Source: Candidatus Omnitrophota bacterium
GTDB lineage: Bacteria; Omnitrophota; Gorgyraeia; Aquiviventales; Aquiviventaceae
DNA: 64,000 bases
Assembly: GCA_023247255.1 (NCBI GenBank)
Contig: JAHFGV010000006.1
Span: 14,231 to 78,230 of the forward strand
Direction of reading: 5' to 3'
Numbering within the stretch: the stretch's first letter is position 1; every line of letters starts with the position of its first letter. The translations under genes were made by a program, and so were the position numbers. Below the pieces are notes generated by a model. The model saw only the letters and a list, made by a program, of their open reading frames with translations. It did no database searches and had not been told where the DNA came from. This document shows, piece by piece, positions 15,512 to 58,297 of the stretch.

Positions 15512-15540
15512 CGGCCATTTTTGTTTCTGGAGCTTAGGTA

Positions 15541-27403: not shown

Positions 27404-28348
27404 ATGCAGATTCTAATTACAGGGGGAGCTGGATTTATAGGATCGCACTTGTGCGATCGGTTTATTGCGGATAAGCACAAGGTGATCTGCGTGGACAATT
27501 TCATCACCGGTGTTGAAGCCAACATCGCTCATCTCATTGGACGTCCTGCCTTCCGTCTTATTCGCCACGACATTACAAAACCTCTCGAGATTTCCGATTC
27601 TCTCGACTATGTGCTGCACTTTGCTTCTCCCGCAAGTCCCATCGATTATCTGAAATACCCCATTCAAACGCTTAAGGTAGGATCCCTGGGAACCCTAAAC
27701 GCTTTAGGCATTGCCAAAGCGAAAAGAGCGAAGTTTCTCCTGGCCTCAACATCCGAAGTCTACGGTGATCCTCAAGTTCATCCTCAGCCAGAGACCTACT
27801 GGGGCCATGTGAATCCGGTTGGACCTCGAGGAGTTTACGATGAAGCCAAGCGGTGTTCTGAGGCTTTCACCATGGCCTATCATCGGGAACACGGGCTGGA
27901 TAGTCGCATCGTCAGAATCTTCAACACCTATGGTCCCCGGATGCGAATGAACGATGGTCGTGCCATTCCCGCATTCATCACGCAGGCGCTGGAGGCAAAG
28001 CCCTTGACCGTTTTTGGAGATGGTTCTCAGACCCGAAGTTTCTGTTATATCGATGATCTCATTGAGGGTATCGTCAGGCTAATGGCCGCCGATTTCAATG
28101 ATCCTGTCAATCTGGGCAATGCCGAGGAATGGACGATTGCCCAACTGGCCCAGGCCGTTTTAAAACTCATCCAGGGCTCGGCAGATGCCTTGAAATTCCA
28201 GCCTCTTCCGATCGACGACCCCAGACAACGCAGGCCTGATTTGGCTCAGGCAAAGAGCTTGCTGAAATGGGAGCCCAAGGTTAGCCTCAAGGAAGGGCTG
28301 ACGAGCACCGTCGGGTGGTTTCGGCAACAACTGCCGATTGCTCGATGA
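27404..28348 (+). CDS. uxs: UDP-glucuronate decarboxylase (UDP-xylose synthase)
   Basis: [60 protein letters not shown]: near-canonical UXS motifs. Confidence 0.8.
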
Positions 28349-28938
28349 TGGACGTTGCCTCTCAGGGTGGTTTGCCTTCACGCTTTTATGGCTTCAAAGT
28401 ATCCCTCCGCGTTTGTCTGCTGAATTTCAGTAGTGTCCCATTGTTTTTGAGATTTTATTGCTCTTCTCGTCGATAAAGTTCGCCGAAACGGTTGAATCGA
28501 CTTCAAGCAAAGATCATGTTTTTATGACAGAGCTCAACGAGAACGCCTTCGAAAATTGAAACGTTGGGACAGCAGTGGCTGAATTTAGGGTATTCCATAC
28601 GACCTACGTTCGGAAGATCTCTTCTCCGGAGAGAGTAAGTCTGAATCCTACCACAAGCTGGAAGTTCAGAGTTGTTAACGGAAGCCTTCAAGACGATTCG
28701 ATGCTCAGCCTCAATGGTATTAACATTCCAGCGATAAATAAACCTATTGCATAATTGGTTTTTCAAGCACCACGTCCGACAGAGTTTGAGCACAGAAAAC
28801 TTATTGCGCAACAGGTCTAATGTGTGATTGCAAGAGCTGACCCCTTCTTCTTGGAGTAGTCCAAATAACCTGTGCTTGTGCAAGTTGCAGACTACAAGCC
28901 TCAAGATCAAAGAGCATCTAGGGTGAAGTTAGCGGACA

Positions 28939-29916
28939 ATGTGTAGAAAAATTGGGAATATCTTTGTATTGGGTAGTGGATTTTCTGCCAGTTGCGGACT
29001 GCCGACACAGGCAGGGCTTTTTAAAGCGCTAATAAACCAAGCGGATCCCAAGGATGTTCCACGATTGCGGAACATGCTGAAGCTTTTCTTCCCGCATATC
29101 GATGAAACTGCCGACAGCTATCCCCCGTTTGAACAATTCCTGAGCCTGCTGACGGCATCGCTGGATCTCTCCTCTGATGAAGAGGGGTCCTTGGCTATGT
29201 TCCCACGCGAGCAACAGGAGAAAGTTCGACAATACTGTCTCCGCCAGCTCCGGATGGTACTGGTCGACAGGAGCGAATCATACCGTAAAAACGAATCAGC
29301 GATCCAAAAATTTGTAAGGTGCTTGAAGACAGGAGACACAATCATTACGTTCAATTGGGATGTTCTCATCGAACAAGCACTCCGTCACGCCAAGAAGAAC
29401 TTCGGATTCTTTTCTCATGCAGACATCACGCTACTGAAGCTTCATGGAAGCTTGGGCTGGTATCTCTTAAAGGACATTGACCGTGACAAACTTCTCGAGT
29501 TTGACAAATTTGACGAAACTTTGGGTGCCTTAAAGCCTGAACACCTCAACTCTCTTCTCGACGTGCCGTCATTGCCCTATATTGTCACTCCGGAACACCA
29601 AAAAAGACCATCAGAGAGACGGGCGATGAGGCCTATCTGGGAGCAGGCATATGATAGGCTGGGGCGAGCAGCGAGAGAGGAAGGTAGTAAGGTTGTGGTT
29701 GTTGGTTATTCCCTTCCTCCGGAAGATTTCGATGCAAGGTTGCTCATGCGAATGGGCATTGGCGCTTGCGGGGACGACAAGAAGATGCTCCACATCATTG
29801 ATCCGGACACTGAGGTTAAAGCTCGCTACTCCTCTTGTATTACTTCTAACATCAAGTTTTACCAGGGGCGCTTCACTGGAGATGAGCTGCCGAAGATATT
29901 AGCTGAAGACTCATAG
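28939..29916 (+). CDS. Solitary SIR2-like (SIR2_2/DUF4020-type) domain protein, 325 aa
   Basis: NIFVLGSGFSASCGLP (NAD-binding GxGxS), ITFNWDVLIE (TxNxD) and LKLHGSLGWY (HG motif) in the spacing characteristic of defence-associated SIR2_2 domains. In-frame stop 9 bp upstream of the ATG. Local GC is ~10% below its surroundings. Confidence 0.65.
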   Translation: MCRKIGNIFVLGSGFSASCGLPTQAGLFKALINQADPKDVPRLRNMLKLFFPHIDETADSYPPFEQFLSLLTASLDLSSDEEGSLAMFPREQQEKVRQYCLRQLRMVLVDRSESYRKNESAIQKFVRCLKTGDTIITFNWDVLIEQALRHAKKNFGFFSHADITLLKLHGSLGWYLLKDIDRDKLLEFDKFDETLGALKPEHLNSLLDVPSLPYIVTPEHQKRPSERRAMRPIWEQAYDRLGRAAREEGSKVVVVGYSLPPEDFDARLLMRMGIGACGDDKKMLHIIDPDTEVKARYSSCITSNIKFYQGRFTGDELPKILAEDS

Positions 29917-30122
29917 TGATCAAATCAACCGTTGGTCATAGATTGGGAAGAAATTCCGGTGACACAGACAGAAAAACTGAGGCGTTTCTGCGGAGGATGT
30001 ACCGGGGTTTTCAATTTGCTGCGCCTCGCTGCTGGAAAATCAGGGACGGGTCTATTTTCTGGGCGGGACTGGGGAGGACGTGACATGAGTCAGGATCATC
30101 GCAAGCGCTTCGGAGTCGATTC

Positions 30123-31010
30123 ATGAAGGTCGTGATTCTCTGTGGAGGATTGGGCACGCGCCTGCGGGAAGAAACCGAGTATCGACCCAAACCCATGGTG
30201 CCAATCGGGGGACGGCCGATCCTGTGGCACATCATGAACCGGTATGCGGCTTACGGGTTTCATGAGTTTGTCTTGTGCCTGGGATACAAGGCGCACATGA
30301 TCAAAGATTATTTTTTGCACTTCCGGACAGAAACGAGCGATTTCACGCTGCGTTTGGGCCAGGGCCACCAGGCGATTGAATACCACAGTCCCCAGCATGA
30401 ACGCGACTGGGTAATTACGTTTGCCGATACCGGAGAGCAGACGATGACCGGAGGCCGTGTCAAACGTATCGAGCAATATGTCGATGGGGATACGTTCATG
30501 CTGACCTACGGGGATGGGTTGGCGGATATCGATATAGCCGAGGGGATCCGTTTTCATAGGCAACACGGCCGGATGGGGACGGTGACCAGCGTGCATCCGG
30601 GAACCGGGCGATTTGGTGAGCTCGTCTTGGCTGGCTCCGAGGTCAGGGATTTTATCGAGAAGCCGGATCAGCACGAAGGATACGTCAGTGGAGGTTTTTT
30701 TATCTTCGAACGGGCGTTCTTCCGATACCTGCAGGAGGACGATCTGTGCGTCCTGGAGCGCGAACCACTCCAGCGTCTTGCGCGGGACGGTCAATTGATG
30801 GCTTATCGTCATCACGGCTACTGGCAGTGCATGGACACCTACCGTGACTATCAACAGCTCAATGAGATTTGGCATCAGGGACAAGCGCCTTGGGGTATAA
30901 TCAAACATGCTTCTGAGGCACCTGCAGGGACCAAGCGCAGTCACCGATCGGGCTCCCCAAACGTTGCACAACCCTTGCGGACATCCCCGGCTCGATCTGA
31001 ATCTCAATGA
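30123..31010 (+). CDS. rfbF: Glucose-1-phosphate cytidylyltransferase
   Basis: MKVVILCGGLGTRLREETEYRPKPMVPIGGRPILWHIM...: DdhA/RfbF signature throughout. Confidence 0.8.
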   Translation: MKVVILCGGLGTRLREETEYRPKPMVPIGGRPILWHIMNRYAAYGFHEFVLCLGYKAHMIKDYFLHFRTETSDFTLRLGQGHQAIEYHSPQHERDWVITFADTGEQTMTGGRVKRIEQYVDGDTFMLTYGDGLADIDIAEGIRFHRQHGRMGTVTSVHPGTGRFGELVLAGSEVRDFIEKPDQHEGYVSGGFFIFERAFFRYLQEDDLCVLEREPLQRLARDGQLMAYRHHGYWQCMDTYRDYQQLNEIWHQGQAPWGIIKHASEAPAGTKRSHRSGSPNVAQPLRTSPARSESQ

Positions 31011-32350
31011 GCACGATAGACGCTGAGTCCATCAAACAAGAGATCCTGGCGAAAGTCCGCGACTATTTCAAGCAGGCGCATGAGCGCAAGGTTTTTGTGC
31101 CCTTTCAGACAAAGATTCCTTATGCCGGACGTGTCTTCGATGCTGAAGAGATCGTGAACCTGGCTGATGCCGCATTAGAGTTCTGGTTGACCTTGGGACG
31201 ATTCGGACAGGAGCTCGAGCGAAAACTCAAGACATTCTTTGACGCCCGGGATGCCCTTTTGGTTAATTCAGGCTCTTCTGCGAACCTTTTGGCTCTAGGA
31301 ACCTTGTGCTCCCCCCACTTGGATCGTCACCTGAAGCCAGGCGATGAAGTCATCACACCCGCCGTGACGTTTCCAACGACGCTGGCTCCCATTGTTCAAC
31401 ACCAGCTTATCCCTGTTTTTGTGGATTCTGAGACAGGTACTTACAACGTCGATCCTCAACAGGTCGCTGATGCGATCTCCCCGTCAACGCGAGCGATTGT
31501 GGTGCCTCATACCCTCGGCAATCCCTGTGACTTGGACGCGTTGATAGCGCTTGCCAAACGTCACGAGCTGTGGCTGGTGGAAGATTGCTGCGACGCTTTG
31601 GGTTCCACTTTTGATGGACGGCACGTGGGCAGTTTCGGGGATCTGGCGACGTTGAGTTGTTATCCCGCTCATCAGATGACGATGGGGGAAGGGGGAGCCG
31701 TGATCGTCAACCGGCAGCGTTTTATCCGTCTTGCGCGATCCATCCGGGATTGGGGGCGGGACTGCTGGTGTGCGCCGGGAGTCAGCGACACCTGTGGCAA
31801 GCGCTTCGGCTGGCAACTGGGTGAGTTGCCTTTGGGCTATGATCACAAATATATCTACTCGCATCTGGGATACAACCTCCGGCCAACCGATCTGCAGGCA
31901 GCCGTAGGATGCGCCCAGTTTGAAAAGCTGGATCGCTTCATCGAACAGCGGCGTCGCAACTTCAGACGATTGCGCGAAGGTCTAGCTATTCTGGAAGAAT
32001 TCCTCATCTTTCCCAGCGTGCATCCCAAGGCTGATCCTGCCTGGTTTGGATTTCCGATCACCTTGCGCAACGGCACCCAGCGCTCGGCGCTTGTGCAGTG
32101 GCTTGAGGCTGCGAAGATCGAGACGCGGATGATCTTTGCGGGCAATATCCTGCGGCAGCCTGCGATGGCCGGTGTTCGTCATCGGGTGCACGGGCAACTG
32201 CGCGTGACGGATAAGGTCATGACCGATGGTTTGTTTCTGGGGGTGTATCCTGGCCTGAGCGATGCGATGATTGATTTCGTGGTCGAACGGGTTACGGGTT
32301 TTTTTCAGGCTTCACGCGTCGGTCGTTCAGCGATTGTATCTGCCACCTAA
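31007..32350 (+). CDS. rfbH: CDP-6-deoxy-D-xylo-4-hexulose-3-dehydrase (E1, PMP/[2Fe-2S] enzyme)
   Basis: DegT-like fold with the E1-specific ...[11 protein letters not shown]... and the C-terminal Cys cluster [11 protein letters not shown]...DTCGKRF; ATGA coupling to rfbF. Confidence 0.8.
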
Positions 32351-32369
32351 AAACGTGTGGACACAACCG

Positions 32370-33452
32370 ATGGCACAAACGTCACCAGCGAACGTTTCCT
32401 CACAACAGACGTTTTGGCAGGACCGAACGGTTTTCGTCACCGGAGCCTCCGGCCTGGTAGGTTCTTGGGTGTTGAAACGTCTCTTAGCGCTGGGCGCCGA
32501 TGTCGTCTGTCTCTTGCGCGATTGGGTGCCGCAGTCGGAGCTGGTGAGGGAGAAGTTGCTGGAACGAGTCAAGATCGTCCGCGGGGATGTTTGCGATCAA
32601 CAGATCCTGGAGCGGGTGCTGGGAGAGTATGAAGTGGAATCCGTCATTCACCTGGCTGCGCAGACGATTGTGGGAGTGGCCAACCGAAATCCGGCTGGGA
32701 CATTTGAAACCAACATCCGCGGCACATGGACGTTGCTGGAGGCTGCTCGAGTGAGTCCCACGGTGAAGCAGATCGTCATCGCCTCATCCGATAAAGCCTA
32801 TGGCGATCAGCCCAATCTGCCCTATAATGAACAAAGCCCACTGCAAGGAAGGCATCCCTACGACGTCAGTAAGTCCTGTGCGGATCTATTGGCCCACGCC
32901 TATGCGACGACGTATCAGTTGCCACTTTGCATCACCCGCTGCGGCAACTTCTATGGTGGGGGCGACTTGAACTGGAACCGTATCGTCCCTGGAACGATCC
33001 GATCCGTGCTGCGCGGCAAGCGTCCGGTCATCCGTTCGGATGGGCGGTATCTTCGCGACTACTTATATGTCGAGGATGCTGCAGATGCTTACACGTTGCT
33101 CGTTGAACGTCTGGCGCAATGCCCTGAGCTTCGTGGAGAGGCGTTTAACTTCTCGAACGAGCAGCCGATGACGGTTATCGAGTTGGTAGAAAAAATTTTG
33201 ACCTTGATGGGTTCCTCCCTTGAACCAGAGATTCGCAACGAAGCGACGCATGAGATTCGGGATCAATACCTCAGCGCCCGCAAGGCCCGTGAGGTGTTAG
33301 GCTGGCAGCCGCTGTACGGTTTTGAGGAAGGGCTCAAGAGAACCGTTCAATGGTATGAGGCGTTCTTCGAAATTCCTGAAATTCAAAGGCAACGTTCGGA
33401 AGGATTGGATCCTTGTGAAATGCCAATTCCTGGGCCAGGAGATTCGATATGA
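32370..33452 (+). CDS. rfbG: CDP-glucose 4,6-dehydratase
   Basis: [31 protein letters not shown]... matches the DdhB/RfbG N-terminus; catalytic YDVSK. Confidence 0.8.
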
Positions 33453-35242
33453 AACTGTCCGATTACGTCGTCGATTACCTTGTGGGTTTGGGCACGCGTG
33501 ATGTGTTTATGGTGATCGGCGGAGCCTGCGCGCATCTGGCACACTCCCTCCACGATCGTCAGGATATCCGCTACGTCTGTGTACAGCATGAACAAGCAGG
33601 GGCGATGGCTGTTGAGGCTTACTCTCGGCTGACCGGACGCTTGGGAGCGATGCTTGTGACAAGCGGGCCCGGGGCGACGAATCTAATCACGGGAATCTGT
33701 GGGGCCTGGTTTGACTCCATCGCCTGTTTATTTCTCACAGGACAGGTCAACACCCACGAGCAGCGAGGACCACGGCCAGTCAGACAGGTGGGATTTCAGG
33801 AGACGGATATTGTCAGCATCGTGAAGCCCATTACGAAATATGCCACGATGATCGATCATCCGGAACGCATCCGCTATGAACTCCAGAAGGCGACTTATAT
33901 AGCCCGCTGCGGACGTCCCGGGCCTGTTTTGCTCGATATTCCGCTTGATATCCAGCGAGCGGACATTGATCCCAATCGCCTGGAGGGTTTTGATGCTCCG
34001 GACTCAGAAGATGCCCTATCGATTCAAGAACTACAGGCAAACGTAACGCAATGCGTGGAATCACTTGAGTCCGCCCAGCGGCCCGTGCTTTTGGTCGGAG
34101 GAGGAATTCGTCTGGCAAATGCCCAGCAAGAGATTCGTCAGGTTGCCGACCGTCTGGGGATTCCAATCGTCGTCTCCTGGAGTGGGTTTGACCTCATTGC
34201 ATTCAACCATCCGCTCTCTATCGGACACTTGGGAGTCTACGGCTCACGCGCCGCAAATTTCACCGTTCAAAACAGCGATCTTTTACTGAGCGTTGGCTCA
34301 CGGTTGGATACGCGCCAGACTGGCGGTAAACCGAGCACCTTTGCCCGGCAGGCCAAAAAGATCATGGTCGATATCGATCCGGGCGAGCTTCACAAACGAC
34401 GCGGGCTGGATGCAGATCTGGCCATTGCCGTGGATGCGAAGCGCTTTCTGCAAGTGCTTCTGGAAAGCCTTCCCAAGAAACACCAGCGAGCCATCACCTC
34501 TTGGGTACAGCGCACCCAACAGTGGAAGCGCCAGTATCCCACGGTGCTGCCAGAGTATTTCCGTCAGGAGCGCAACGTCAATCCTTATGTCTTCATTAAA
34601 ACCTTGTCTGCGGTGCTAGACGCCGAGGCCGTGGTCATTACCGACTGCGGCGCTAACCTTACTTGGACGATCCAGGCCTTTGAAGTGAAAGAAAATCAGC
34701 GGGTGTTATCCACTTTCGGAAATTCTCCGATGGGCTATTCCTTCGCCGCTGCGATCGGTGCGGCCATCGGGCTGAATCGTACGATCATTTGTATCATCGG
34801 AGACGGCGGTTTTCAGATGAACATCCAAGAGCTCCAAACCGTTTTCCACTACAAGCTTCCGATCAAAACATTCATTCTCAACAACCATTCCTACGGTATC
34901 ATCAAGCAGTTCCAGGATATGTATTTCAACTCCGTGTATGTCGGCTCAGGCGAAGGCTATAGCTGTCCGGATTTCGTGAAGGTCGTCGAGGCGTATGGGA
35001 TTGCGACGGCGCGGATCTCAAGCCACAGCTCTCTCACCGAGCAGATTCACCAAGTCCTGCGCCAGCCGGGTCCTGTTGTGTGCGACGTGGTTTTGAATGA
35101 CGATGCCAAGCTGACTCCACGCCTGGAATTTGGCAAGTCGATTGAGGATCAGACCCCGTATCTTTCTCGCGAGGAATTTATGTCAAACATGATCGTTGCG
35201 CCAGTGCCGGAGTCAATCGAACAGGAGGTGAAACATGTCTGA
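33449..35242 (+). CDS. ThDP-dependent acetolactate-synthase-family enzyme (YerE-like candidate C-C ligase for branched sugars; no small subunit present)
   Basis: TPP_enzyme N, central and C-terminal domains ([11 protein letters not shown]..., GDGGFQMN...); ATGA-coupled to rfbG and 8-bp overlap with panB. Confidence 0.7.
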
Positions 35243-36104
35243 GGAACGCAAGAAAGTAACCCTGCACACCCTCTATCGCCTCAAAGCTGAAGACAAACGA
35301 GCGGTCTACATCACGGCTTATGACTATCCCTTCGCCCTTCTTGCGGATCGTGCCGGCGTGGATATGATTCTAGTCGGGGATTCCCTGGCCATGACCGTTC
35401 ATGGGTATTCGACGACGCTGCCGATCACGATGAACGAAATGATCAGCCACGCCAAGGCCGTGACCCGAGCCGCCAAATCGGCGTTTGTCTTTGGCGACAT
35501 GCCTTATATGTCGTATCAGCCGTCGGATCGAGACGCGATCATCAACGCGGGGCGGTTTATCCAAGAAGCGGGTTGCGATGGAGTCAAATTGGAAGGTGGC
35601 CGTCGCGTGCTCAGTCGAGTCAAAGCCATTGTCGAGGCCGGGATCGTTGTCCAGGGGCATCTGGGATTGACGCCGCAAAATCTTGGGCAATTGGGAGGCT
35701 ATCGGGTCCAGGGTAAAACGAAGGAATCTTATCAGGCACTCCTCGATGATGCCAAGTCCTTGGAAGCTGCCGGTGCTTCGTCTTTGCTTTTAGAGGCGAT
35801 GCCGGCCGTAACGGCTGCAAAAATCAGGGAGCAGCTTTCTATCCCTGTATATGGCATCGGTGCCGGCGATCAGGTGGATGGCCAACTGGTCATCATCCAT
35901 GACATCCTCGGACTGTTCGAGCAGTTCACGCCCAAGTTCGTTAAGCGCTACTGCGAGGCTGGAATCCTCATCAAAGCGGCCCTAGAGCAATACGCCGCTG
36001 AGGTTCGAGGGGGTACTTTTCCTGGCCCCCAGCAGTGCTATGAGATTGCTCCAGAGGAGCGACAGCGCATCCTTGGGGTTGGGACAACCGCAGTGCCATC
36101 TTGA
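35235..36104 (+). CDS. panB: 3-methyl-2-oxobutanoate hydroxymethyltransferase (ketopantoate hydroxymethyltransferase) homolog
   Basis: Canonical PanB motifs: YDYPFALLADRAGVDMILVGDSLAM, KLEGG, QGHLGLTPQ. Confidence 0.8.
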   Translation: MSEERKKVTLHTLYRLKAEDKRAVYITAYDYPFALLADRAGVDMILVGDSLAMTVHGYSTTLPITMNEMISHAKAVTRAAKSAFVFGDMPYMSYQPSDRDAIINAGRFIQEAGCDGVKLEGGRRVLSRVKAIVEAGIVVQGHLGLTPQNLGQLGGYRVQGKTKESYQALLDDAKSLEAAGASSLLLEAMPAVTAAKIREQLSIPVYGIGAGDQVDGQLVIIHDILGLFEQFTPKFVKRYCEAGILIKAALEQYAAEVRGGTFPGPQQCYEIAPEERQRILGVGTTAVPS

Positions 36105-36149
36105 AAACGCCAAGAAGGTCGTAAGCCAAGGTCATAAAAAATCAGAAGA

Positions 36150-37241
36150 ATGCCCACAGCAGCATCGCAGGTAACTGCTATTTCCTTAATCGAGCAGGAT
36201 AGCGAACGCGTAGTTTCTGAGGTTGGAGACTCCATCCACCGACTCTGCGGAAAAACGCTTCTCTTGACAGGGGCGAATGGATTTTTGGCAAGTTATTTGG
36301 TAGATACCGTTGCATGGATGAACCAGCATGTGTTCTCATCCCCCTGCCGGTTGATTGCTATGGTGCGTTCGCCTATCACGCCATCGGAACGTCTAGGTCA
36401 CTTGCTGGGTCGTGGCGATGTGCAATTCATCCAGCAGGATGTCTGCGCTCCTGTTCACCTGGATGGTCCTATTAACTTTGTTGTCCACGCGGCCTCCAAG
36501 GCTTCTCCAAAAGACTACCTCGCCCACCCTCTGGAGACGATGGATGCTAATGTCATTGGGACCCGGCTTTTGCTTGATCTTGTCAAGGCGCAACGGACTG
36601 GGCGTGTGCTCTTTTTGAGTAGCGGTGAAATCTATGGCAATGTTTCTGCTCAGTTCATTCCGATTCAGGAAGACTGTCCTTGGAGTATGCCTCCTACTGA
36701 CCCCCGAGCCTGTTATGCCGAGTCAAAACGATATGGGGAGGCTTTGTGTCTTGCCTATTGGCGGGAGTATCAAGTCCCAGTTAATATTGCACGAACATTT
36801 CATGTGTATGGGCCTGGGCTTCGCTTGGATGATGGAAGGGTGATGGCGGATTTCTTTAGGCACCGTCTCGAGAATACCCCCTTGCGTGTCTTAAGCGATG
36901 GCAGTGGGGTTCGAGCTTTTTGCTATGTGTCTGACGCTGTGACGGGGTTCTTGAAACTACTGCTCTCCGACTGCCATGGGGAAGTCGTAAATATCGGGAA
37001 TGATCAGGAACCCCTCTCGGTTCGTGAACTGGCCCTGTTGATCGCAACACTTGAAGATCCTCAGTTGCCTGTCAAGTTCCAGTCTGTTGCATTGCCCGAG
37101 CATTTGCGCGGAAGCCCTTCACAAGTCTGTCCGGACATCAGCAAAGCTCGACGCTTGCTGCACTTTGAACCGCGCGTCGGGCTACGGGAAGGGTTGTGCA
37201 AAACGCTTCAATGGCATCGGGCATGCCTGGGCAGACGATGA
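36150..37241 (+). CDS. NAD(P)-dependent sugar epimerase/reductase (extended SDR)
   Basis: LLLTGANGFLASYLV Rossmann motif, catalytic YAESK; ATGA-coupled to the downstream GT2. Confidence 0.6.
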   Translation: MPTAASQVTAISLIEQDSERVVSEVGDSIHRLCGKTLLLTGANGFLASYLVDTVAWMNQHVFSSPCRLIAMVRSPITPSERLGHLLGRGDVQFIQQDVCAPVHLDGPINFVVHAASKASPKDYLAHPLETMDANVIGTRLLLDLVKAQRTGRVLFLSSGEIYGNVSAQFIPIQEDCPWSMPPTDPRACYAESKRYGEALCLAYWREYQVPVNIARTFHVYGPGLRLDDGRVMADFFRHRLENTPLRVLSDGSGVRAFCYVSDAVTGFLKLLLSDCHGEVVNIGNDQEPLSVRELALLIATLEDPQLPVKFQSVALPEHLRGSPSQVCPDISKARRLLHFEPRVGLREGLCKTLQWHRACLGRR

Positions 37242-38293
37242 TCGAGGAAGACAACGCAATGCTATCCGAACGCACGAGTCGCCAGGCAATCACTTCTGTC
37301 AGTGCAAAAGCACCACCGCTTGTGTCGATCATCATTCCTGCGCGAAATGAAGCGGAGAATATCCCGCGGCTTGAAGCGGAATTATTAGCAACGGTCGATT
37401 CACTGCCCTACGCGTTTGAATTCCTCGTGATCGATAATGCCAGTGAAGATGGCACCGGAGCATTGCTCAAAGCCATCTGCGCTCGTGATCCTCGGTGGAA
37501 ATACATACGATTCAGCCGAGACTTCACGGTGGAAATGTCGCTGACGGCCGGATACCATCTCTGCTCTGGAGAAGCCATCATCGTCCTCCATTCCGACCTT
37601 CAGGATCCTCCAGAGACCATTCCGCGGTTTCTTGAGAAATGGCACGAGGGCTACGATGTCGTCTATGGGGTGCGAACCGTTAGACCTGGGGAGCCAACGT
37701 GGCGCAATGTGGCGGTTCATTGGGCTTACCGCTGCATTGCCTGGGCCTCAGACGTCCCAATTCCACTAGATGCTGGGGATTTTCGTCTCATCTCGAAACG
37801 AGTCAGGGATGCCCTGGAGCAGTGCGGGGAATACAACCGCTATATGCGGGGCTTGGTCGCTTGGCTCGGATTTCGGCAGGTGGGCATTCCCTATGAACGG
37901 AGGCCGAGGAAAGCGGGTAGGAGCAATGCCCCCTTCTGGCATTTGGTGTCGTTCACCTTCAATGCAATCACGAGTTTCTCTCTAAAACCGCTTCGGATGT
38001 TTACTTTTATGGGTCTGTTGCTACTACTGCTGTCGGTGGGTGCGCTTCCTATCTATGTCGTTCTCTACCTCATCGGCTCCCCGCCGCCGGGCATTACGAC
38101 CATTATCGTTTTATTATTTATCGGCATCGGCTTAAACAGCTTAGGCATTGGCATCTTGGGCGAGTATCTGGGCCGAACCTATGCCGAGGTGAAAAGAAGA
38201 CCCCTGTACCTCATTCAAGAAACGGTTAATGTGGATGCCCCTGCGATGTCACAGGAACTGGCTCTTTCAGGAAAGAGAGAGGATCTTAAATGA
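37238..38293 (+). CDS. GT2 polyprenyl-phosphate glycosyltransferase (GtrB/ArnC/DPM1-like) with C-terminal TM helices
   Basis: VSIIIPARNEAENI...VIDNASEDGT...LHSDLQDP (DxD) plus two C-terminal TM helices. The start could be 37259. Confidence 0.7.
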   Translation: MIEEDNAMLSERTSRQAITSVSAKAPPLVSIIIPARNEAENIPRLEAELLATVDSLPYAFEFLVIDNASEDGTGALLKAICARDPRWKYIRFSRDFTVEMSLTAGYHLCSGEAIIVLHSDLQDPPETIPRFLEKWHEGYDVVYGVRTVRPGEPTWRNVAVHWAYRCIAWASDVPIPLDAGDFRLISKRVRDALEQCGEYNRYMRGLVAWLGFRQVGIPYERRPRKAGRSNAPFWHLVSFTFNAITSFSLKPLRMFTFMGLLLLLLSVGALPIYVVLYLIGSPPPGITTIIVLLFIGIGLNSLGIGILGEYLGRTYAEVKRRPLYLIQETVNVDAPAMSQELALSGKREDLK

Positions 38294-38553
38294 TAACGGC
38301 TAAGCAACAGCAAGTCTTGGGATACATCACGCATTACGTCATGGAGCATCAGCGTGCGCCGCTGATCCGTGAGATTCAAGAAGGGTGTCAGATCAGGTCC
38401 TATAAATCCGCGATTGACCGTTTAAGCGCCCTGGAACGCAAGGGGATCATCAAGCGTCTTTCCAACAAGCATCGCGGCATCCGCTTGCTTCAACAACCCA
38501 CCGCAGGCTCCCCAGCCGTGGAAGCAGTCCCAGCCCTTCAGGAGGTTCGCTAA
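38290..38553 (+). CDS. Stand-alone LexA-type winged-helix DNA-binding domain protein (no S24 peptidase domain)
   Basis: MITAKQQQVLGYITHYVMEHQRAPLIREIQEGCQIRSYKSAIDRLSALERKGIIKR matches the LexA N-terminal DNA-binding domain pattern; only 87 aa. Confidence 0.5.
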   Translation: MITAKQQQVLGYITHYVMEHQRAPLIREIQEGCQIRSYKSAIDRLSALERKGIIKRLSNKHRGIRLLQQPTAGSPAVEAVPALQEVR

Positions 38554-39632
38554 TGTTCAAAGATGGAGAGATCAGGGAGCCGAATAACTTAAGCTTTTTG
38601 AATGGGAAGACCCTTTTGGTTACCGGAGCAACCGGCTCATTTGGTCAACAGTTTACAGAGGCGGTGTTACGCGATAGCCATGTGAAGGCTCTGCGGATTT
38701 ACTCACGCGATGAGCTGAAACAGCACCATATGAGCCAGCTGTTTTCGGATGAGCGGTTGCGATTTTTTATTGGGGACGTGCGCGATAAGGAACGTTTGCG
38801 ACGAGCCATGCACGGTGTGGATATGGTCGTCCATGCCGCAGCGCTTAAGCAGGTTCCTGCCTGTGAATACAATCCTTTCGAGGCCGTGAAGACTAATATC
38901 CTCGGGGCAGTTAACATCATTGATACGGCCATTGACTGTAACGTGCAGCGAGTGATTGCCCTAAGTAGCGATAAGGCTGTGAATCCGATCAACCTCTATG
39001 GAGCGACTAAATTATGCGCGGAGAAGCTGTTTGTACAAAGCAACGCCTATTCTGGGCTGGATGGGACCCGTTTCAGTTCGGTTCGGTATGGCAACGTCGT
39101 GGGCAGCCGGGGCAGTGTTATCCCCTTGTTCCTTCAACAACGCACCCAGAGACTGGTTACCGTAACCGATAGGCGGATGACGCGTTTTTGGATCACCTTG
39201 GAACAGGGGGTGAACTTTGTCTTGCGGACCCTGGAGTTGATGCACGGCGGGGAAATCTTCGTGCCGAAGATTCCGAGCATGAACATCATGGACCTAGTCG
39301 ATGCGATTGCGCCCGATTGCGAGGTTCAATTTACCCAGATTCGTCCTGGTGAAAAACTCCATGAAATACTCATCTCCTCGGATGAGGCGCGACACACCCT
39401 GGAATTCCCAGACATGTTTGTCATTCAGCCCATGCATCCTTGGTGGAAATGTGATAACTGGAAAGAGGGCAAAGCCCTTCCGGACGGATTCGTTTACAGC
39501 AGCAACGCCAATCCACAGCAACTCAGTGTGGAGATTCTTCGGAACATGGTCGCTAGTCTCGGTGAGATGGAAGAATTCGCATCAACCGCAACGGGAGGCG
39601 CACCTGTCATGAAAGACACCAATGGCGACTGA
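38553..39632 (+). CDS. pseB: UDP-N-acetylglucosamine 4,6-dehydratase (inverting), PseB/FlaA1
   Basis: LLVTGATGSFG, ...SSDKAVNPINLYGATKLCAEK...: polysaccharide-biosynthesis CapD/PseB signatures; TAATG coupling. Confidence 0.8.
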   Translation: MFKDGEIREPNNLSFLNGKTLLVTGATGSFGQQFTEAVLRDSHVKALRIYSRDELKQHHMSQLFSDERLRFFIGDVRDKERLRRAMHGVDMVVHAAALKQVPACEYNPFEAVKTNILGAVNIIDTAIDCNVQRVIALSSDKAVNPINLYGATKLCAEKLFVQSNAYSGLDGTRFSSVRYGNVVGSRGSVIPLFLQQRTQRLVTVTDRRMTRFWITLEQGVNFVLRTLELMHGGEIFVPKIPSMNIMDLVDAIAPDCEVQFTQIRPGEKLHEILISSDEARHTLEFPDMFVIQPMHPWWKCDNWKEGKALPDGFVYSSNANPQQLSVEILRNMVASLGEMEEFASTATGGAPVMKDTNGD

Positions 39633-40851
39633 GGTTATCAGCTCCAAACCTGTTTTTAGCCATCCAGCGCTTGCGCTTTATGGAGGAACACCGATCAGGA
39701 CTCGGTTTTTGCCCTATGGGCATCAATCGATCGATGAGAGCGCTATCCAGGCGGTCGTCCAGGTGCTTCGTTCTGATTGGATCACCACAGGCCCAAAGAT
39801 TGCGGAATTCGAAGAGGCTATTGCGGCCGTTGTTGGAGCGCGGCAAGCCGTTGTGTTTAGCTCTGGAACTGCCGCTTTGCACGCCGCAGCTTTCGCGGCA
39901 GATCTTGAGCCTGGGCAGGAGGCGATCACAACGCCGCTTACGTTTTGCGCAACAGCCAATTGTATGCTCTATCAGGGAGCAAGACCTATTTTCGCTGACG
40001 TCTGTCCTGATACGCTTCTGATTGATCCCTGTGAGGTGGCTCAACGCATCACGCCTCGCACGAAAGCAATCCTTCCCGTCGACTACGCAGGGCATCCCGC
40101 GGCGTTAGGGGAATTCATGGAGCTAGCCAACCGTCATGGGCTTGTGATCATCGAAGACGCGACTCATGCCCTGGGAGCCACACATAAAGGGCGCAGGGTT
40201 GGAAGCATCGCGCACATGACGGTATTTAGCTTCCATCCAGTGAAGCACATCACGACAGGAGAAGGGGGCGCTGTCACCACAGACAATGTCCAGCTTGCCC
40301 ATCGGCTACGGAAGTTTCGGAATCATGGAATCGACTACGACCCACAGCTTCGTCAACACCACGGAACCTGGTATTACGAAATGGTGGAGCTTGGATATAA
40401 TTACCGATTGACGGATATCGGCTGTGCGCTTGGGCTTTCACAGTTGCGATCCCTTGAGGCGAATCTTGCCAGACGACGCGCTCTAGCGGACCGGTATACA
40501 GCGGCCTTAGCCGATCTTCCTGGCTTGACTCCCCCGGTGGTTCATACAGACGTTGAACCCGCATGGCATCTGTATCCTGTTCGGCTTGAATTAGCGAAAC
40601 TGCGCGTGGGGCGGGAAGAAATCTTTCGGGCTTTGCGCGCGGAGAATATCGGCGTCAACGTGCATTACATCCCCGTGCATCTTCATCCCTACTATCGCGC
40701 TCGATTCGGATATCGTGGGGGGGAATACCCCGTGGCTGAAATGGCCTACGAGCAATTGATCAGCCTGCCGATGTTTCCTGGCATGAGCGACTCAGATATC
40801 GAGGACGTCATCGAAGCACTGAGAAAGGTCATGAGCTACTATGCCCGGTGA
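39622..40851 (+). CDS. pseC: UDP-4-amino-4,6-dideoxy-N-acetyl-beta-L-altrosamine transaminase, PseC-like (DegT family)
   Basis: LPYGHQSIDESAIQAVVQVLRSDWITTGPKIAEFEEA... is the PseC-type N-terminus; PLP-Lys region FSFHPVKHIT. Confidence 0.75.
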   Translation: MATEVISSKPVFSHPALALYGGTPIRTRFLPYGHQSIDESAIQAVVQVLRSDWITTGPKIAEFEEAIAAVVGARQAVVFSSGTAALHAAAFAADLEPGQEAITTPLTFCATANCMLYQGARPIFADVCPDTLLIDPCEVAQRITPRTKAILPVDYAGHPAALGEFMELANRHGLVIIEDATHALGATHKGRRVGSIAHMTVFSFHPVKHITTGEGGAVTTDNVQLAHRLRKFRNHGIDYDPQLRQHHGTWYYEMVELGYNYRLTDIGCALGLSQLRSLEANLARRRALADRYTAALADLPGLTPPVVHTDVEPAWHLYPVRLELAKLRVGREEIFRALRAENIGVNVHYIPVHLHPYYRARFGYRGGEYPVAEMAYEQLISLPMFPGMSDSDIEDVIEALRKVMSYYAR

Positions 40852-40957
40852 TTCCTAAGGACATTGCCTTGCGCTTGTGGCTCGTTTGTTCACGAGCATC
40901 CACATTGTGCCTGGCATGACCGTGTGGTATTTTGAAACATACGAGAGGGGATGAAAC

Positions 40958-41950
40958 ATGTCTGTCGAGATCATCGCGGAAGTTGCGCAAGGCTACGCAG
41001 GCGATCCAACGCTCGCACGGCTGCTTGCACGCTCAGCTGTACTTGCCGGAGCCGATGCCGTGAAATTTCAACTCGTCTATGCCGATGAGTTGGCCACGCC
41101 TAATTACCCCTATTACGCCCGATTCCAAAAACTCCAGATGCCCCAGGACGCCTGGCACTGTGTCGTGCAAGAAGTTCGGGCAGGGAAACGGCGGCTCTAT
41201 CTCGACGTCTTTGGCGAGCGCAGTCTTGGCGAAGCCAAAGCCATGGGTGCTGACGGAGTGAAGATTCACAGCACCGATTTCTTCAACGACGACTTGGTGC
41301 GCGAGGCGCTGGCGTGCATGAGCCGCGTTTTTGTATCGCTCGGGGGTATTAGCGCGGATGAATTAGAGGAATTCCTGCACAGGCACCATCTGAGACCGAG
41401 TGATTCCCTCTGTCTGCTCTACGGATTCCAGGGATTTCCAACACCGATTGACTCCAACCATCTGCAGCGACTAGGTACCTTACGAGTGCGATTCCCAGGG
41501 TATCCGTTCGGGTTCATGGATCACACAGACGGTAGCGATGAGGAAACCATGACCGTTTCCTTGGTAGCGTTGGCGTATGGCGTGCAGTGTATCGAAAAGC
41601 ACATCACACTGGATCGCACCCTGCAACTAGAAGATTACATCTCGGCGCTTGACGGGGAGCACTTTCGTCACTTCGTGCAGCGTGTGCGCCAGCTGGAGAG
41701 CGCTTTGGGAACGGAGTCGCTAGAGCTGAGCGCACCTGAGTGGGAATACCGACGCAAAGCCGTGAAGACCATCGTTGCAAAACAGCATCTTAAGCAGGGC
41801 GATGTGGTGACACTCAATCAACTGTGCTTCAAGCGGGCAGCAGAGAAGAGTTCCGAAACATCGATCTACCGGCTCGATGAGGCAGTAGGCCGGACGCTAG
41901 TGGCCGACGTCGCCCCAAACCAATCACTGACCCGGGAAATGGTTCGATGA
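40958..41950 (+). CDS. NeuB-family aldolase-type synthase paralog 1 (divergent)
   Basis: IAEVAQGYAGD...AGADAVKFQL, GFMDHTDG, IEKHITLDR parallel the NeuB motifs IAEIGxNHNG...GxxAVKFQ, GFSDHS and IEKHFTLD. Confidence 0.6.
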   Translation: MSVEIIAEVAQGYAGDPTLARLLARSAVLAGADAVKFQLVYADELATPNYPYYARFQKLQMPQDAWHCVVQEVRAGKRRLYLDVFGERSLGEAKAMGADGVKIHSTDFFNDDLVREALACMSRVFVSLGGISADELEEFLHRHHLRPSDSLCLLYGFQGFPTPIDSNHLQRLGTLRVRFPGYPFGFMDHTDGSDEETMTVSLVALAYGVQCIEKHITLDRTLQLEDYISALDGEHFRHFVQRVRQLESALGTESLELSAPEWEYRRKAVKTIVAKQHLKQGDVVTLNQLCFKRAAEKSSETSIYRLDEAVGRTLVADVAPNQSLTREMVR

Positions 41951-42831
41951 GACGACTCGTCGCGACTCTCGCCTGCCGAGTGCAGGGCAGTCGGCTTTAC
42001 GGCAAGCCGCTGCAGCATTTGGATGTAGAGAACAGGGTGACGATTTTAGAGCACCTGATTAGTCTTATCCAGACGCTGCCATGCATCGAGGCTGTAGTCT
42101 TGGGCATCGCTCGAGGAGTAGAGAATGAACCGTTTCGGGACATCGCACGACGCCGGGGCATTGCCTTCATCATGGGAGATCAGCGGGACGTTTTGCAGCG
42201 GTTGATTCAGTGTGGGCGCAAGGCCCGTGGCACCGATGTGTTTCGGGTCACGACGGAGTCGCCGTTTTTCTACTACGAAGTCGTTGCGGACGCCTGGCGA
42301 CGACACATCGAAGCAGGCAATGACGTGACTACCTTCGACGGGGTACCCGCGGGCTCGTTTTTCGAAATCTATAGTCTCGAAGCCTTGGAGCGATCACACC
42401 GACTGGGGGATAAGAGGCATCGGTCTGAATATTGCAGCCTCTATGTCCGTGAACATCTCAAGGACTTTCAAGTTGAGGTGTTACCGATTCCTCCAGAGCT
42501 TGAACGCCTGGATCTGCGCTTCACGGTCGACTACCCGGAGGATCTGGTAGTCTGCCGTCAGGTGTACGAACATTTCAAAGCCCAGGCGCCACGCCTGCCT
42601 CTTCGCGACATTATTCGGTATGTAGATAGCCAGCCTCAGTTGAAAGCCCTAGTAGTACCCTATGTCGTCTCAAAACGACTCTGGTTTCTTCCCAGCCGTG
42701 AGCCAACTTGCTCTGCCGCCACCTGGTCTGCCGGTCAGAACCAGGCATCTAGCAATCTTAGCAGGCTGCGGAAAAACGCCACGCTTGCTCAAGGCTCGAG
42801 GCTTTTGGCTAGAGATCCAACGAATCGTTGA
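41947..42831 (+). CDS. Cytidylyltransferase of the PseF/SpsF/NeuA-like family (CMP-nonulosonate synthetase candidate)
   Basis: N-terminal RLYGKPL...nucleotide-binding region and C-terminal RFTVDYPEDL motif typical of CTP_transf_3 enzymes. Confidence 0.6.
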   Translation: MRRLVATLACRVQGSRLYGKPLQHLDVENRVTILEHLISLIQTLPCIEAVVLGIARGVENEPFRDIARRRGIAFIMGDQRDVLQRLIQCGRKARGTDVFRVTTESPFFYYEVVADAWRRHIEAGNDVTTFDGVPAGSFFEIYSLEALERSHRLGDKRHRSEYCSLYVREHLKDFQVEVLPIPPELERLDLRFTVDYPEDLVVCRQVYEHFKAQAPRLPLRDIIRYVDSQPQLKALVVPYVVSKRLWFLPSREPTCSAATWSAGQNQASSNLSRLRKNATLAQGSRLLARDPTNR

Positions 42832-42860
42832 TTGTCAATCGTCGATTGTCGATTTGTTGG
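42822..42860. repeat. Short heptamer array (reverse orientation: AAATCGAC AATCGAC GATTGAC AATCAAC)
   Basis: CGAATCGTTGATTGTCAATCGTCGATTGTCGATTTG lies between the cytidylyltransferase and pseI. Confidence 0.5.
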
Positions 42861-42932
42861 TAGTAAAATGTGGAGTGCCACTGCGAGACGCTCGTCGGCT
42901 TCGTAGAGGACTGACTCAACAAGGTAAACCAG

Positions 42933-43988: not shown

Positions 43989-43994
43989 TGGGTC

Positions 43995-48627: not shown

Positions 48628-48645
48628 CCGCTTGACGTGCATTCC

Positions 48646-51648: not shown

Positions 51649-51894
51649 ATGAGTCAGACGAAGTTGGCTCGCTGTTTCGCAGAAGCGCTTGGAATTCAGG
51701 AACAGGCCGTAACAGACGAGTTGGCATATCAGACCATCAAAGAATGGGATTCCGTGCGGCACATGGCGCTTGTGGCAATCATCGAGCAGACGTTCAACGT
51801 CATGCTCGACACCAACGACATCATCGCCATGAGCAGCGTGGGAAAGGCCAAAGCGATCTTGGCGAAGTATGGCATCGACTGTGATGCTGCTTAA
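51649..51894 (+). CDS. Acyl carrier protein
   Basis: ~80-aa helical protein with the phosphopantetheine-attachment context ...KEWDSVRHMALVAIIEQTF... (DS motif). Confidence 0.7.
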   Translation: MSQTKLARCFAEALGIQEQAVTDELAYQTIKEWDSVRHMALVAIIEQTFNVMLDTNDIIAMSSVGKAKAILAKYGIDCDAA

Positions 51895-58283: not shown

Positions 58284-58297
58284 CACAGGCTCATCCC

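Follow-up and report, generated by a model that had tools for sequence, protein, structure and literature searches.

The locus lies in a 64,000-nucleotide stretch of a Candidatus Omnitrophota contig (this whole stretch is hereafter called the window) and consists of a block of seven genes on the + strand at positions 30123-38293. All seven genes that an earlier note had reported there were found, on that strand and at the coordinates it gave. They are listed below with the small open reading frame (ORF) that follows them.

30123..31010, + strand, glucose-1-phosphate cytidylyltransferase (DdhA/RfbF type; TIGR02623 equivalog, 330 bits against a cut-off of 300.25; Pfam NTP_transferase)
31007..32350, + strand, E1-type CDP-4-keto-6-deoxyglucose 3-dehydrase (DdhC/RfbH/AscC; NF011936, 644 bits against a cut-off of 423)
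32370..33452 (alternative TTG start at 32271), + strand, NDP-hexose 4,6-dehydratase, SDR (DdhB-like; TIGR02622, 210 bits, cut-off 278)
33449..35242, + strand, YerE-like ThDP-dependent carboligase with three domains (TPP_enzyme_N, M and C)
35235..36104, + strand, PanB-type 2-oxo-acid hydroxymethyltransferase (PF02548, 348 bits)
36150..37241, + strand, extended SDR (Pfam Epimerase and GDP_Man_Dehyd)
37259..38293 (alternative GTG start at 37196), + strand, GT2 polyprenyl-phosphate glycosyltransferase (ArnC/GtrB/PgfS type; PF00535)
38290..38553, + strand, 87-aa ORF containing only a LexA-type N-terminal winged-helix DNA-binding domain (PF01726, 53.8 bits)

The overlaps of 4-8 bp previously described in this block are present between ddhA and E1 (4 bp), the dehydratase and ThDP genes (4 bp), and the ThDP and PanB genes (8 bp), whereas gaps separate E1 from the dehydratase (19 bp with the starts chosen by gene callers), PanB from the SDR (45 bp) and the SDR from the GT2 (17 bp). 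For the dehydratase, the gene callers on the source contig take the 360-aa form. The 87-aa ORF overlaps the stop of the GT2 gene by 4 bp and may encode a regulator tied to the cassette; a counterpart with 57% identity adjoins the cassette of locus L005, which is syntenic as a whole seven-gene unit (69-79% identity). PseB, PseC, four NeuB paralogues, ATP-grasp ligases and an AMP-binding/LuxE/LuxC module are encoded around the cassette.

The product of glucose-1-phosphate cytidylyltransferase is CDP-D-glucose, and the orthologue of this enzyme in L005 is 69% identical. The E1-type protein aligns with E1 of Y. pseudotuberculosis (3bcx/3bb8) with a score of 470 bits; His220 replaces the usual Lys, and cysteines 193, 251, 253 and 261, numbered after the Fe-S motif of the E1 literature, are retained. 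These residues support its assignment as a true Fe-S/His220 E1, which would depend on PMP and a [2Fe-2S] cluster. The earlier view that no E3 accompanies this E1 in the window also stood: the scanned non-shadow ORFs (at least 150 aa) of the window contained no E3/DdhD-like gene, nor did the ~7 kb past its right end. E1 has an E3 reductase as its partner in the ddhDABC clusters of Yersinia and Salmonella (PMC5399914). With this usual partner missing, the 3,6-dideoxy acceptor is assumed to be formed. As for the dehydratase, its place in the 4,6-dehydratase family stood, but the CDP type did not emerge cleanly: the label 'ddhB' is plausible rather than a clean call, because the score against TIGR02622 (CDP-glucose 4,6-dehydratase; 210 bits) is under the cut-off and the dTDP-glucose dehydratase model scores about equally (196 bits). 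The matches in the PDB are similarly close, with 161 bits for 6bi4 (dTDP type) and 152 bits for 1wvg (CDP type).

The ThDP enzyme, which had been read as YerE-like, scores 402 bits against JanthE (8rph) and 386 bits against PpYerE (5ahk) but at most 291 bits against any AHAS, a difference of ~100 bits, and it stays under the cut-off of the AHAS equivalog (458.7 against 538.35). These scores support a YerE-type sugar-branching enzyme rather than an IlvB/AHAS, and the predicted reaction is the ligation of a decarboxylated 2-oxo acid to the keto group at C4 of a CDP-sugar. JanthE of Janthinobacterium sp. HH01 (PDB 8rph; PMC12188165), the best-scoring solved relative, has a broad donor range and illustrates that longer and branched 2-oxo acids can serve as donors for YerE-like enzymes, although its ThDP motif is CDG whereas that of the cassette enzyme is the canonical GDG.

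The PanB protein (289 aa, with no added domain for a nucleotide) exceeds the cut-offs of both TIGR00222 (310 against 207.55) and NF001452 (347.6 against 272) and matches E. coli PanB (1m3u) with 225 bits. The Mg2+/2-oxo-acid carboxylate residues D45, S46, D84, K112, E114, H136 and E181 do not vary among the 74 members of its clade, and the pocket residues L42, M49, I202, L212 and I214 are the same as in housekeeping PanBs; in E. coli KPHMT, the substrate pocket comprises I202, I212 and V214 (PMC7610986). The cassette enzyme shares the fold, the length and the Mg2+/carboxylate, catalytic and pocket residues of housekeeping PanBs (E. coli, 1m3u; M. tuberculosis, 1oy0), but it differs from them in belonging to a separate clade, lying in a glycan operon, being coupled to a YerE-like gene and having no panC, panD or panE nearby. 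In a neighbour-joining (NJ) tree, the clade of 74 PanBs holds the cassette copy and all 60 ThDP-linked copies, whereas the remaining 86 of the 160 homologues fall outside it, none of them ThDP-linked and all in non-glycan contexts. The cassette PanB is a paralogue from a glycan/secondary-metabolism clade and is predicted to make a 4-hydroxy-2-oxo-acid donor. Near the active site, a large marine subclade has the substitutions Q142H, G135S and D166Q, and its chemistry may not be that of the cassette enzyme.

At 60 of the 160 unique PanB homologues, a YerE-like gene lies within ~1 kb on the same strand in a deoxysugar cluster, and because the pairing recurs at this many unique homologous loci and in one PanB clade, it is not due to chance. 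Its other hosts include a Chloroflexi MAG, Gammaproteobacteria MAGs and many low-GC marine contigs. No description of this pair, recurrent in many uncultured bacteria, was found in the literature searched. PanB relatives with 67-68% identity also occur without a YerE-like gene nearby; the relative in L009 has an NRPS-like context that lacks sugar genes, and in one case the relative is fused with a methyltransferase. In the CDP-sugar cluster of L096, the neighbour of PanB is a split transketolase, a ThDP enzyme that belongs to a different superfamily. Class I/II aminotransferases, which are likewise enzymes of free 2-oxo acids, take the slot of PanB after a 57% identical ThDP gene in L091 and L177, although they could equally aminate the side-chain ketone instead of supplying a donor. 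Several related loci contain DegT aminotransferases and GNAT acyltransferases downstream of the pair. At the level of sequence, the family identity of each enzyme, the active-site residues and the recurrent ThDP-PanB linkage are well established.

An SDR gene follows PanB also in L005, L093 and L014. Because the nearest solved relatives of the SDR are UDP-glucuronate decarboxylases (179 bits), any specific role is tentative; it is closer to UDP-xylose synthases than to any characterised side-chain reductase, and we regard it as a candidate for a YerF/ErwF-like enzyme that reduces the side-chain ketone. The GT2 scores under the cut-offs of NF047588 (PgfS; 223 bits) and NF007986 (ArnC; 149 bits), has two C-terminal hydrophobic (transmembrane) helices at ~aa 244-302, and has a counterpart in L005, an orthologue with 70% identity in the corresponding position.

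The clusters for erwiniose (ErwE/ErwF/ErwI-J), caryophyllose (MMAR_2331-2333) and gastriose (MyGE/MygF/MygI) resemble the cassette in combining genes for CDP-4-keto-3,6-dideoxyglucose with a YerE-like carboligase, a reductase and then a glycosyltransferase, and in having an adjacent enzyme able to build a 4-hydroxy-2-oxo acid (PMC9306805). In the erwiniose system, the aldolase adjoining the YerE-like ErwE makes 4-hydroxy-2-oxopentanoate, and ErwE refuses pyruvate but accepts 4-hydroxy-2-oxobutanoate, as part of the 'unifying scheme' of Steitz et al. 2022 for longer acyl-branched sugars (PMC9306805). The donor maker in these clusters is an aldehyde-using pyruvate aldolase (HpcH/BphI type), whose place in the cassette is taken by a folate-dependent hydroxymethyltransferase of the PanB type; the aldolase and E3 are missing from the cassette. 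The yersiniose A pathway of Yersinia pseudotuberculosis (ddhDABC, yerE and yerF) likewise follows a CDP-hexose route that includes E1, and has a ThDP carboligase of the flavoenzyme type acting at C4 and then a reductase. However, YerE takes pyruvate as such, with no gene for donor tailoring, the sugar is transferred by a conventional O-unit glycosyltransferase rather than a polyprenyl-phosphate GT2, and ddhD, absent from the cassette, is always present in yersiniose clusters (PMC5399914).

By analogy with these systems, the best reading is that PanB fills the place of the aldolase in the erwiniose/caryophyllose scheme, acting on a free 2-oxo acid and not on the sugar, with ketopantoate as its probable product. 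We give roughly an even chance to the cassette being a dedicated pathway for a C4-acyl-branched CDP-3,6-dideoxyhexose of the yersiniose/erwiniose/caryophyllose kind, in which a PanB-made donor is joined by the YerE-like enzyme. We infer the order of the steps, the donor, the acceptor, the role of the SDR and the final product as follows. CDP-glucose would be made by the cytidylyltransferase and converted by the 4,6-dehydratase to CDP-4-keto-6-deoxyglucose, from which E1, supplied with electrons by a reductase whose gene lies elsewhere or by a general ferredoxin/flavodoxin system, would remove the C3 hydroxyl to give CDP-4-keto-3,6-dideoxyglucose. In parallel, PanB would convert a free 2-oxo acid and 5,10-methylene-tetrahydrofolate to a 4-hydroxy-2-oxo acid; given the unchanged pocket, 2-oxoisovalerate (which would yield ketopantoate) or 2-oxobutyrate is the likeliest substrate. 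The YerE-like enzyme would decarboxylate this acid and join the resulting acyl-anion equivalent to the sugar at its C4 carbonyl, generating a tertiary alcohol that bears a 3-hydroxyacyl branch. The SDR would then reduce the side-chain ketone to a 1,3-dihydroxyalkyl branch (1,3-dihydroxy-2,2-dimethylpropyl if ketopantoate is the donor), and the GT2 would load the sugar onto polyprenyl phosphate, on which it would be exported and then joined to a surface glycan. The beta-carbon of ketopantoate is quaternary, and no report of a YerE-like enzyme taking such a donor was found in the literature searched; we know of no sugar with the proposed 3-hydroxyacyl-derived branch.

The observations are better explained by a single coupled branching step, in which PanB tailors the donor, than by two independent branches. 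The earlier note had favoured the latter, proposing PanB as a second, independent branching enzyme that hydroxymethylates the nucleotide sugar with methylene-THF. The reaction would then take place either at C3 or C5 beside the 4-keto group or on the methyl of a 4-C-acetyl group installed by the YerE-like enzyme. Such chemistry is conceivable, as an alpha-hydroxy ketone or a 4-keto sugar could chelate Mg2+ and enolise; PanB travels with the ThDP enzyme and keto-sugar genes, and the ThDP enzyme is about as near to the pyruvate-using PpYerE as to JanthE. The proposal nevertheless appears unlikely and lost ground on several points: D45, S46, D84 and K112 are invariant throughout the clade and the small hydrophobic pocket is unchanged, the protein is of ordinary PanB length and above the equivalog cut-off, close relatives occur away from YerE-like genes and the one in L009 away from any sugar genes, an aminotransferase occupies its slot in related cassettes, and for the analogous aldolase the side chain was built before ligation in the published test (PMC9306805).

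Less probable still is a joint route of PanB and the ThDP enzyme to a free branched hydroxy acid, e.g. with the ThDP enzyme adding an acyl unit to ketopantoate at its keto group, in the manner of AHAS on 2-oxo acids. The acid would serve for N- or O-acyl decoration of an amino sugar or a nonulosonic acid belonging to the surrounding island. The genes around the cassette and the DegT and GNAT genes after the pair in related loci are in line with this, and YerE-type enzymes accept keto-esters as acceptors (PMC12247030), but translational coupling ties the pair to a complete CDP-4-keto-3,6-dideoxyhexose set with its own GT2, as in yersiniose/erwiniose clusters, the block is kept as a unit in L005, and it contains no acid-activating enzyme. 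That these are the housekeeping ilvB and panB of the genome, lying by chance in a polysaccharide locus, as the note had also considered, is very improbable despite the equivalog-level PanB scores and fully canonical active site, given the AHAS scores, the absence of ilvN, ilvC, ilvD, panC, panD and panE from the window, the clade shared with every ThDP-linked copy and separate from the 86 other PanBs, the 8-bp overlap and the synteny in L005.

The linkage at 60 of 160 loci, the single clade and the lack of ilv/pan genes in the window instead support the ThDP and PanB genes as dedicated paralogues in a CDP-3,6-dideoxyhexose operon, and the region 30123-38293 is a dedicated surface-sugar operon, not a set of vitamin or amino-acid housekeeping genes. 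If PanB is indeed the donor maker, its use would add a C1 unit and permit a gem-dimethyl (quaternary) carbon.

The cassette lies inside a very large glycan island. Profile searches identified eight closely packed genes at 30123-38553, of which the first seven (30123-38293) make up the cassette.

Genes of the cassette and the adjoining ORF, with their profile or structure matches
30123-31010, +, glucose-1-phosphate cytidylyltransferase (TIGR02623, 330 bits; cut-off 300)
31007-32350, +, RfbH/E1-type 3-dehydrase (NF011936, 644 bits; cut-off 423)
32370-33452, +, SDR 4,6-dehydratase (TIGR02622, 210 bits; cut-off 278)
33449-35242, +, three-domain ThDP enzyme, 597 aa (TIGR00118, 458.7 bits; cut-off 538.35)
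35235-36104, +, PanB (TIGR00222, 310 bits, cut-off 207.55; NF001452, 347.6 bits, cut-off 272)
36150-37241, +, extended SDR (UDP-xylose synthases nearest in the PDB, 179 bits)
37259-38293, +, GT2 related to ArnC/PgfS (ArnC, 149 bits, and PgfS, 223 bits, each below its cut-off)
38290-38553, +, LexA-type DNA-binding domain, 87 aa (PF01726, 53.8 bits)

Overlaps of 4 or 8 bp are present at four junctions. The gene set and order described in the earlier note were borne out, but two junctions are short gaps with the starts of the gene caller, and its 'ddhB' call stands by context only: the dehydratase does not reach the equivalog cut-off for CDP-glucose 4,6-dehydratase (210 versus 278 bits) and is about equally close to CDP-type and dTDP-type enzymes among both profile models and PDB relatives. 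It is a 4,6-dehydratase-type SDR with a presumed CDP specificity. The SDR encoded directly after PanB has UDP-xylose synthases as its nearest solved relatives. In the GT2 (long form), PF00535 spans aa 44-174 and two C-terminal hydrophobic segments, apparently membrane helices, lie at aa 244-302, an architecture that fits a putative polyprenyl-phosphate GT2 of the ArnC/GtrB/DPM1 type. The LexA-type ORF lacks a protease domain and overlaps the GT2 stop codon by 4 bp; a 57% identical LexA-like ORF adjoins the syntenic cassette in metagenome contig L005 (1725-1976), and the 87-aa ORF may be a cassette-specific regulator. Promoter and terminator scans of 28300-38700 found 5 promoter-like sites (6.7 expected) and 11 terminator-like sites (10.1 expected) and are uninformative on the limits of the operon.

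The ThDP enzyme contains TPP_enzyme_N, M, and C, and alignment revealed an ordinary GDG motif, the corresponding motif of JanthE being CDG. Among solved structures, it matched 8rph at 402 bits and 5ahk, the Pseudomonas protegens YerE homologue (PpYerE), at 386 bits, versus at most 291 bits for any AHAS, and it missed the equivalog cut-off for the AHAS large subunit (TIGR00118). The 8rph entry is JanthE (PMC12188165). The gene is flanked by those for the cytidylyltransferase (ddhA), E1, and the 4,6-dehydratase, and profile scans of the window found no ilvN, ilvC, or ilvD. By sequence and context, the enzyme is YerE-like rather than IlvB/AHAS-like, as the earlier note had suggested, and is predicted to catalyse carboligation of a 2-oxo-acid donor onto a keto-sugar acceptor. 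The cassette is similar to the YerE/ErwE acyl-branched sugar pathways, its ThDP enzyme agreeing with the family in both respects. A second ThDP enzyme (522 aa) is encoded together with a 2-hydroxyacid dehydrogenase, followed by an ORF of the bAvd/23S-rRNA-IVP family, at 15373-18309 of locus L175 (ENA contig k141_6271840), ~1.4-4.3 kb past the right end of the window; the glycan island therefore contains two different ThDP enzymes.

The 3-dehydrase scored 470 bits to the Yersinia E1. In the alignment, His220 is retained where aminotransferases have lysine, as are the cysteines at positions 193, 251, 253, and 261, which we take to be the [2Fe-2S] motif C-X57-C-X-C-X7-C of the E1 literature; the non-ligand C257 is replaced by Val. 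Judged by these residues, the protein is a genuine E1. E1-type enzymes require an electron donor, but no gene of the Fer2/FAD_binding_6/NAD_binding_1 type (E3) was found in the window, in agreement with the earlier note, in ~7 kb beyond its right end, or in the 16.9 kb of the syntenic locus L005. This absence need not be fatal, because SpnQ, the E1 homologue of the spinosyn pathway, reportedly functions with general ferredoxin or flavodoxin reductases. It does distinguish the cassette from the pathways of the YerE/ErwE family, and in Yersinia and Salmonella ddhD (E3) is always present with ddhABC (PMC5399914).

PanB scored 225 bits to E. coli PanB (1m3u) and lies above both curated equivalog cut-offs (TIGR00222 and NF001452). 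The Mg2+-binding, carboxylate-binding, and catalytic residues D45, S46, D84, K112, E114, H136, and E181 (E. coli numbering) are all present. In the E. coli enzyme (KPHMT), substrate size is set by positions I202, I212, and V214 (PMC7610986); the pocket of the window protein (L42, M49, I202, L212, and I214) is the same as that of most ordinary PanBs. The relatives of this protein were collected as 160 unique homologues with at least 50% identity, using exact-sequence look-ups, GTDB genomes, and JGI metagenomes. In 60 of the 160, a homologue of the window ThDP enzyme (30-73% identical) is encoded on the same strand, upstream or downstream, no more than ~1 kb away. All 60 fall into a single clade of 74 in a neighbour-joining tree, to which the window PanB belongs, and only three well-flanked members of that clade lack the ThDP link. 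None of the remaining 86, most of them contributed by Bipolaricaulota, Anaerolineae, Thermotogae, and comparable genomes, is ThDP-linked. The seven residues are kept in 74/74 clade members and are invariant in the ThDP-linked clade and the other group alike. No panC was found beside PanBs of the latter group in the four GTDB loci sampled, where the neighbours are unrelated, non-glycan genes; the 'housekeeping' label for the 86 is based on context and taxon-wide presence, not on pan-operon linkage. The window contains no panC, panD, or panE. As far as sequence comparison can tell, the window PanB is canonical by its active site, not by its relatives.

Several other features were observed among the PanB homologues. 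A subclade of 61 PanBs (marine loci L097-L170, e.g. L105 and L144, together with L021 and L018) carries the substitutions Q142H, G135S, D166Q, and A175C near the active site (E. coli numbering). A Syntrophobacter MAG has three paralogues in a stretch of 8 kb (L089:1655-8771) and a Clostridiaceae MAG has two (L047:959-8825), all outside the ThDP-linked clade. P0031 is a 502-aa fusion of a PanB 70% identical to that of the window with a SAM-dependent methyltransferase, and a methyltransferase is also encoded near PanB in loci L009 and L007, which hints at a combination of methylation and hydroxymethylation of 2-oxo acids.

The ThDP-PanB pair is widespread. The entire cassette, including the LexA-like ORF, is syntenic in L005 with 57-79% protein identity. 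Combined with different sugar scaffolds, the pair alone was found in a Chloroflexi MAG (L007/L011) and in two Gammaproteobacteria MAGs (L012 and L014), and also in several other contigs (L092-L094) and in ~50 marine contigs (29-32% G+C in the three computed). One marine ThDP partner is likewise nearest to JanthE and YerE (306 and 273 bits, respectively, versus 242 bits for AHAS). Two marine contigs that were scanned contain SDR and DegT genes, with RmlC-like, B12-radical-SAM, and GT2 genes in one case each, and the sources of the 61-member subclade include a Pelagibacter MAG and a single-cell genome of Prochlorococcus. At least ten further PanB matches are on contigs equal in length to those of top ThDP matches, an indirect proxy which suggests that the two genes are on one contig. 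B12-radical-SAM genes adjoin the pair in L007 and L105, and one also lies near a PanB-less YerE-like gene in L091.

Both partners were also found in other settings, which are relevant to the role of PanB. At L096:6926-11415, a clade PanB (65% identical) is encoded in a CDP-sugar cluster, and the genes after it specify a DegT aminotransferase, a GNAT protein, and a split transketolase. The last is a ThDP enzyme from outside the superfamily of the YerE-like one; no YerE-like enzyme is encoded there, so that PanB has ThDP partners of two unrelated kinds. Conversely, at L091:9001-11984 and L177:6001-8979, a ThDP gene (57% identical product) is followed by a class I/II aminotransferase gene in the slot of PanB. 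Clade PanBs 67-68% identical to that of the window occur with no YerE-like gene nearby, and the context of PanB in L009 is NRPS-like, with zero sugar genes.

The genes upstream of the cassette encode UDP-glucose dehydrogenases, RmlA-, RmlB-, and RmlD-like proteins, a DegT aminotransferase, and epimerases. Downstream, four NeuB paralogues (40958, 42933, 50284, and 58280) are distributed over 38553-51375 and 58280-59359 together with PseB, PseC, two ATP-grasp ligases, a metallophosphatase, an HAD phosphatase, and a weak CMP-transferase-like gene, and a UDP-GlcNAc 2-epimerase gene is also present. These genes form an unusually rich nonulosonic-acid island, which suggests that several different nonulosonic acids or derivatives are made. 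Genes for a FabG-like SDR, an AMP-binding enzyme, a LuxE acyl-protein synthetase, and a LuxC acyl-CoA reductase follow in succession at 51869-56557; this module, which resembles the one behind the N-acyl (tetronate) group of perosamine in Vibrio cholerae O1, probably makes an acyl decoration. The 624-aa protein encoded at 59356-61230, which lacks a Pfam match and is predicted to span the membrane about ten times, is a candidate GT-C transferase or polymerase that could use the lipid-linked branched sugar. Between two sugar modules, a 325-aa ORF (28939-29916) with only a weak SIR2_2 match lies in the lowest-GC patch of the window (28001-30000; 0.48) and may be an inserted defence-type gene. A 1017-aa protein (15541-18594) has only weak LptC, LptA, and LptD matches, which suggest a diderm envelope, and two adjoining GGDEF diguanylate cyclases are encoded upstream of the island at 10970-13698. 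The DNA derives from a metagenome assembly, and every named close relative of its DnaJ belongs to a Candidatus Omnitrophica MAG (70-72% identity).

PanB forms a C-C bond at C3 of a 2-oxo acid to yield a 4-hydroxy-2-oxo acid, with methylene-THF as the C1 source; pyruvate is a poor substrate in classical enzymology. In the erwiniose, caryophyllose, and gastriose pathways, an aldolase encoded beside the YerE-like gene makes a 4-hydroxy-2-oxo acid, and this acid, not pyruvate, is the donor that the ThDP enzyme transfers onto CDP-4-keto-3,6-dideoxyglucose before a reductase completes the branch; for ErwE, 4-hydroxy-2-oxobutanoate is an accepted donor and pyruvate is not (PMC9306805). Whereas those clusters have a class II or pyruvate aldolase gene by the ThDP gene, the cassette has a PanB paralogue there instead. 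It contains no aldolase gene, the sole aldolase-family match being an unrelated transaldolase at 14813-15511. Because the PanB reaction is of the same kind as that of those aldolases, and E. coli KPHMT itself serves as an aldolase in biocatalysis (PMC7610986), PanB is proposed to supply the 4-hydroxy-2-oxo-acid donor in place of the aldolase. Given its unchanged pocket, 2-oxoisovalerate (yielding ketopantoate) or 2-oxobutyrate would be the favoured substrate. The ThDP enzyme would then join the decarboxylated unit to C4 of the sugar, the SDR, as a candidate for a YerF/ErwF-like role, would reduce the side-chain ketone, and the GT2 would place the sugar on polyprenyl phosphate so that it can be passed out of the cytoplasm. 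A 1,3-dihydroxy-2,2-dimethylpropyl group or its monomethyl analogue is predicted as the branch; the literature searched contained no sugar with either. Nor did the open-access literature searched contain any link between PanB/ketopantoate hydroxymethyltransferase and nucleotide or branched sugars, O-antigen, or gene clusters. We tentatively suggest, while regarding it as rather doubtful, that the PanB/YerE-like pair marks out a class of surface sugars, widespread but so far unstudied, in which a folate C1 unit and a branched-chain 2-oxo acid yield a neopentyl-type side chain on a deoxyhexose.

It is also possible that the pair makes a free acid that is used as an acyl decoration, and the nonulosonic-acid genes that surround the cassette fit such a role; against this, its two genes are coupled in translation to a full CDP-deoxyhexose set with its own GT2, and the block is conserved as a unit. 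The proposal in the earlier note that PanB hydroxymethylates the sugar itself, as a second branching enzyme, is conceivable but agrees poorly with the invariant carboxylate-binding residues, the small unchanged pocket, the lack of any nucleotide-binding addition on the protein, and the existence of clade members in contexts without sugar genes. Its alternative, that housekeeping ilvB and panB are embedded here, is all but ruled out for the ThDP enzyme and improbable for PanB in view of the family scores, the absence of ilv and pan partner genes from the window, and the ThDP-linked clade structure.

Annotation pipelines name the pair acetolactate synthase and 3-methyl-2-oxobutanoate hydroxymethyltransferase, a systematic mis-annotation, and the organism is therefore credited with valine and pantothenate steps that it may not perform. 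This bears on metabolic reconstructions of uncultured lineages, which may include Patescibacteria: source annotations assign a PanB homologue with 71% identity, as well as YerE-like homologues, to this group, and the L091 ThDP protein to a Patescibacteria MAG. Hypervariable glycan islands on marine plankton-type contigs commonly contain the pair; the surface diversity encoded by such islands is generally attributed to phage and grazer pressure. If the donor-supply reading is true, the rule that the adjoining enzyme builds the donor of a YerE-like carboligase would widen from aldolases to a folate-dependent C1 transferase and would predict new sugar structures from sequence alone. YerE-like enzymes are wanted for the synthesis of chiral tertiary alcohols, and their donor range would be broadened by a natural pair in which one enzyme makes hindered 4-hydroxy-2-oxo acids and the other uses them. 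The pair gives a sharp, testable prediction. If the suggested class of surface sugars exists, donors with a quaternary beta-carbon would be accepted by YerE-like enzymes, and PanB would have a second physiological role beyond coenzyme A synthesis.
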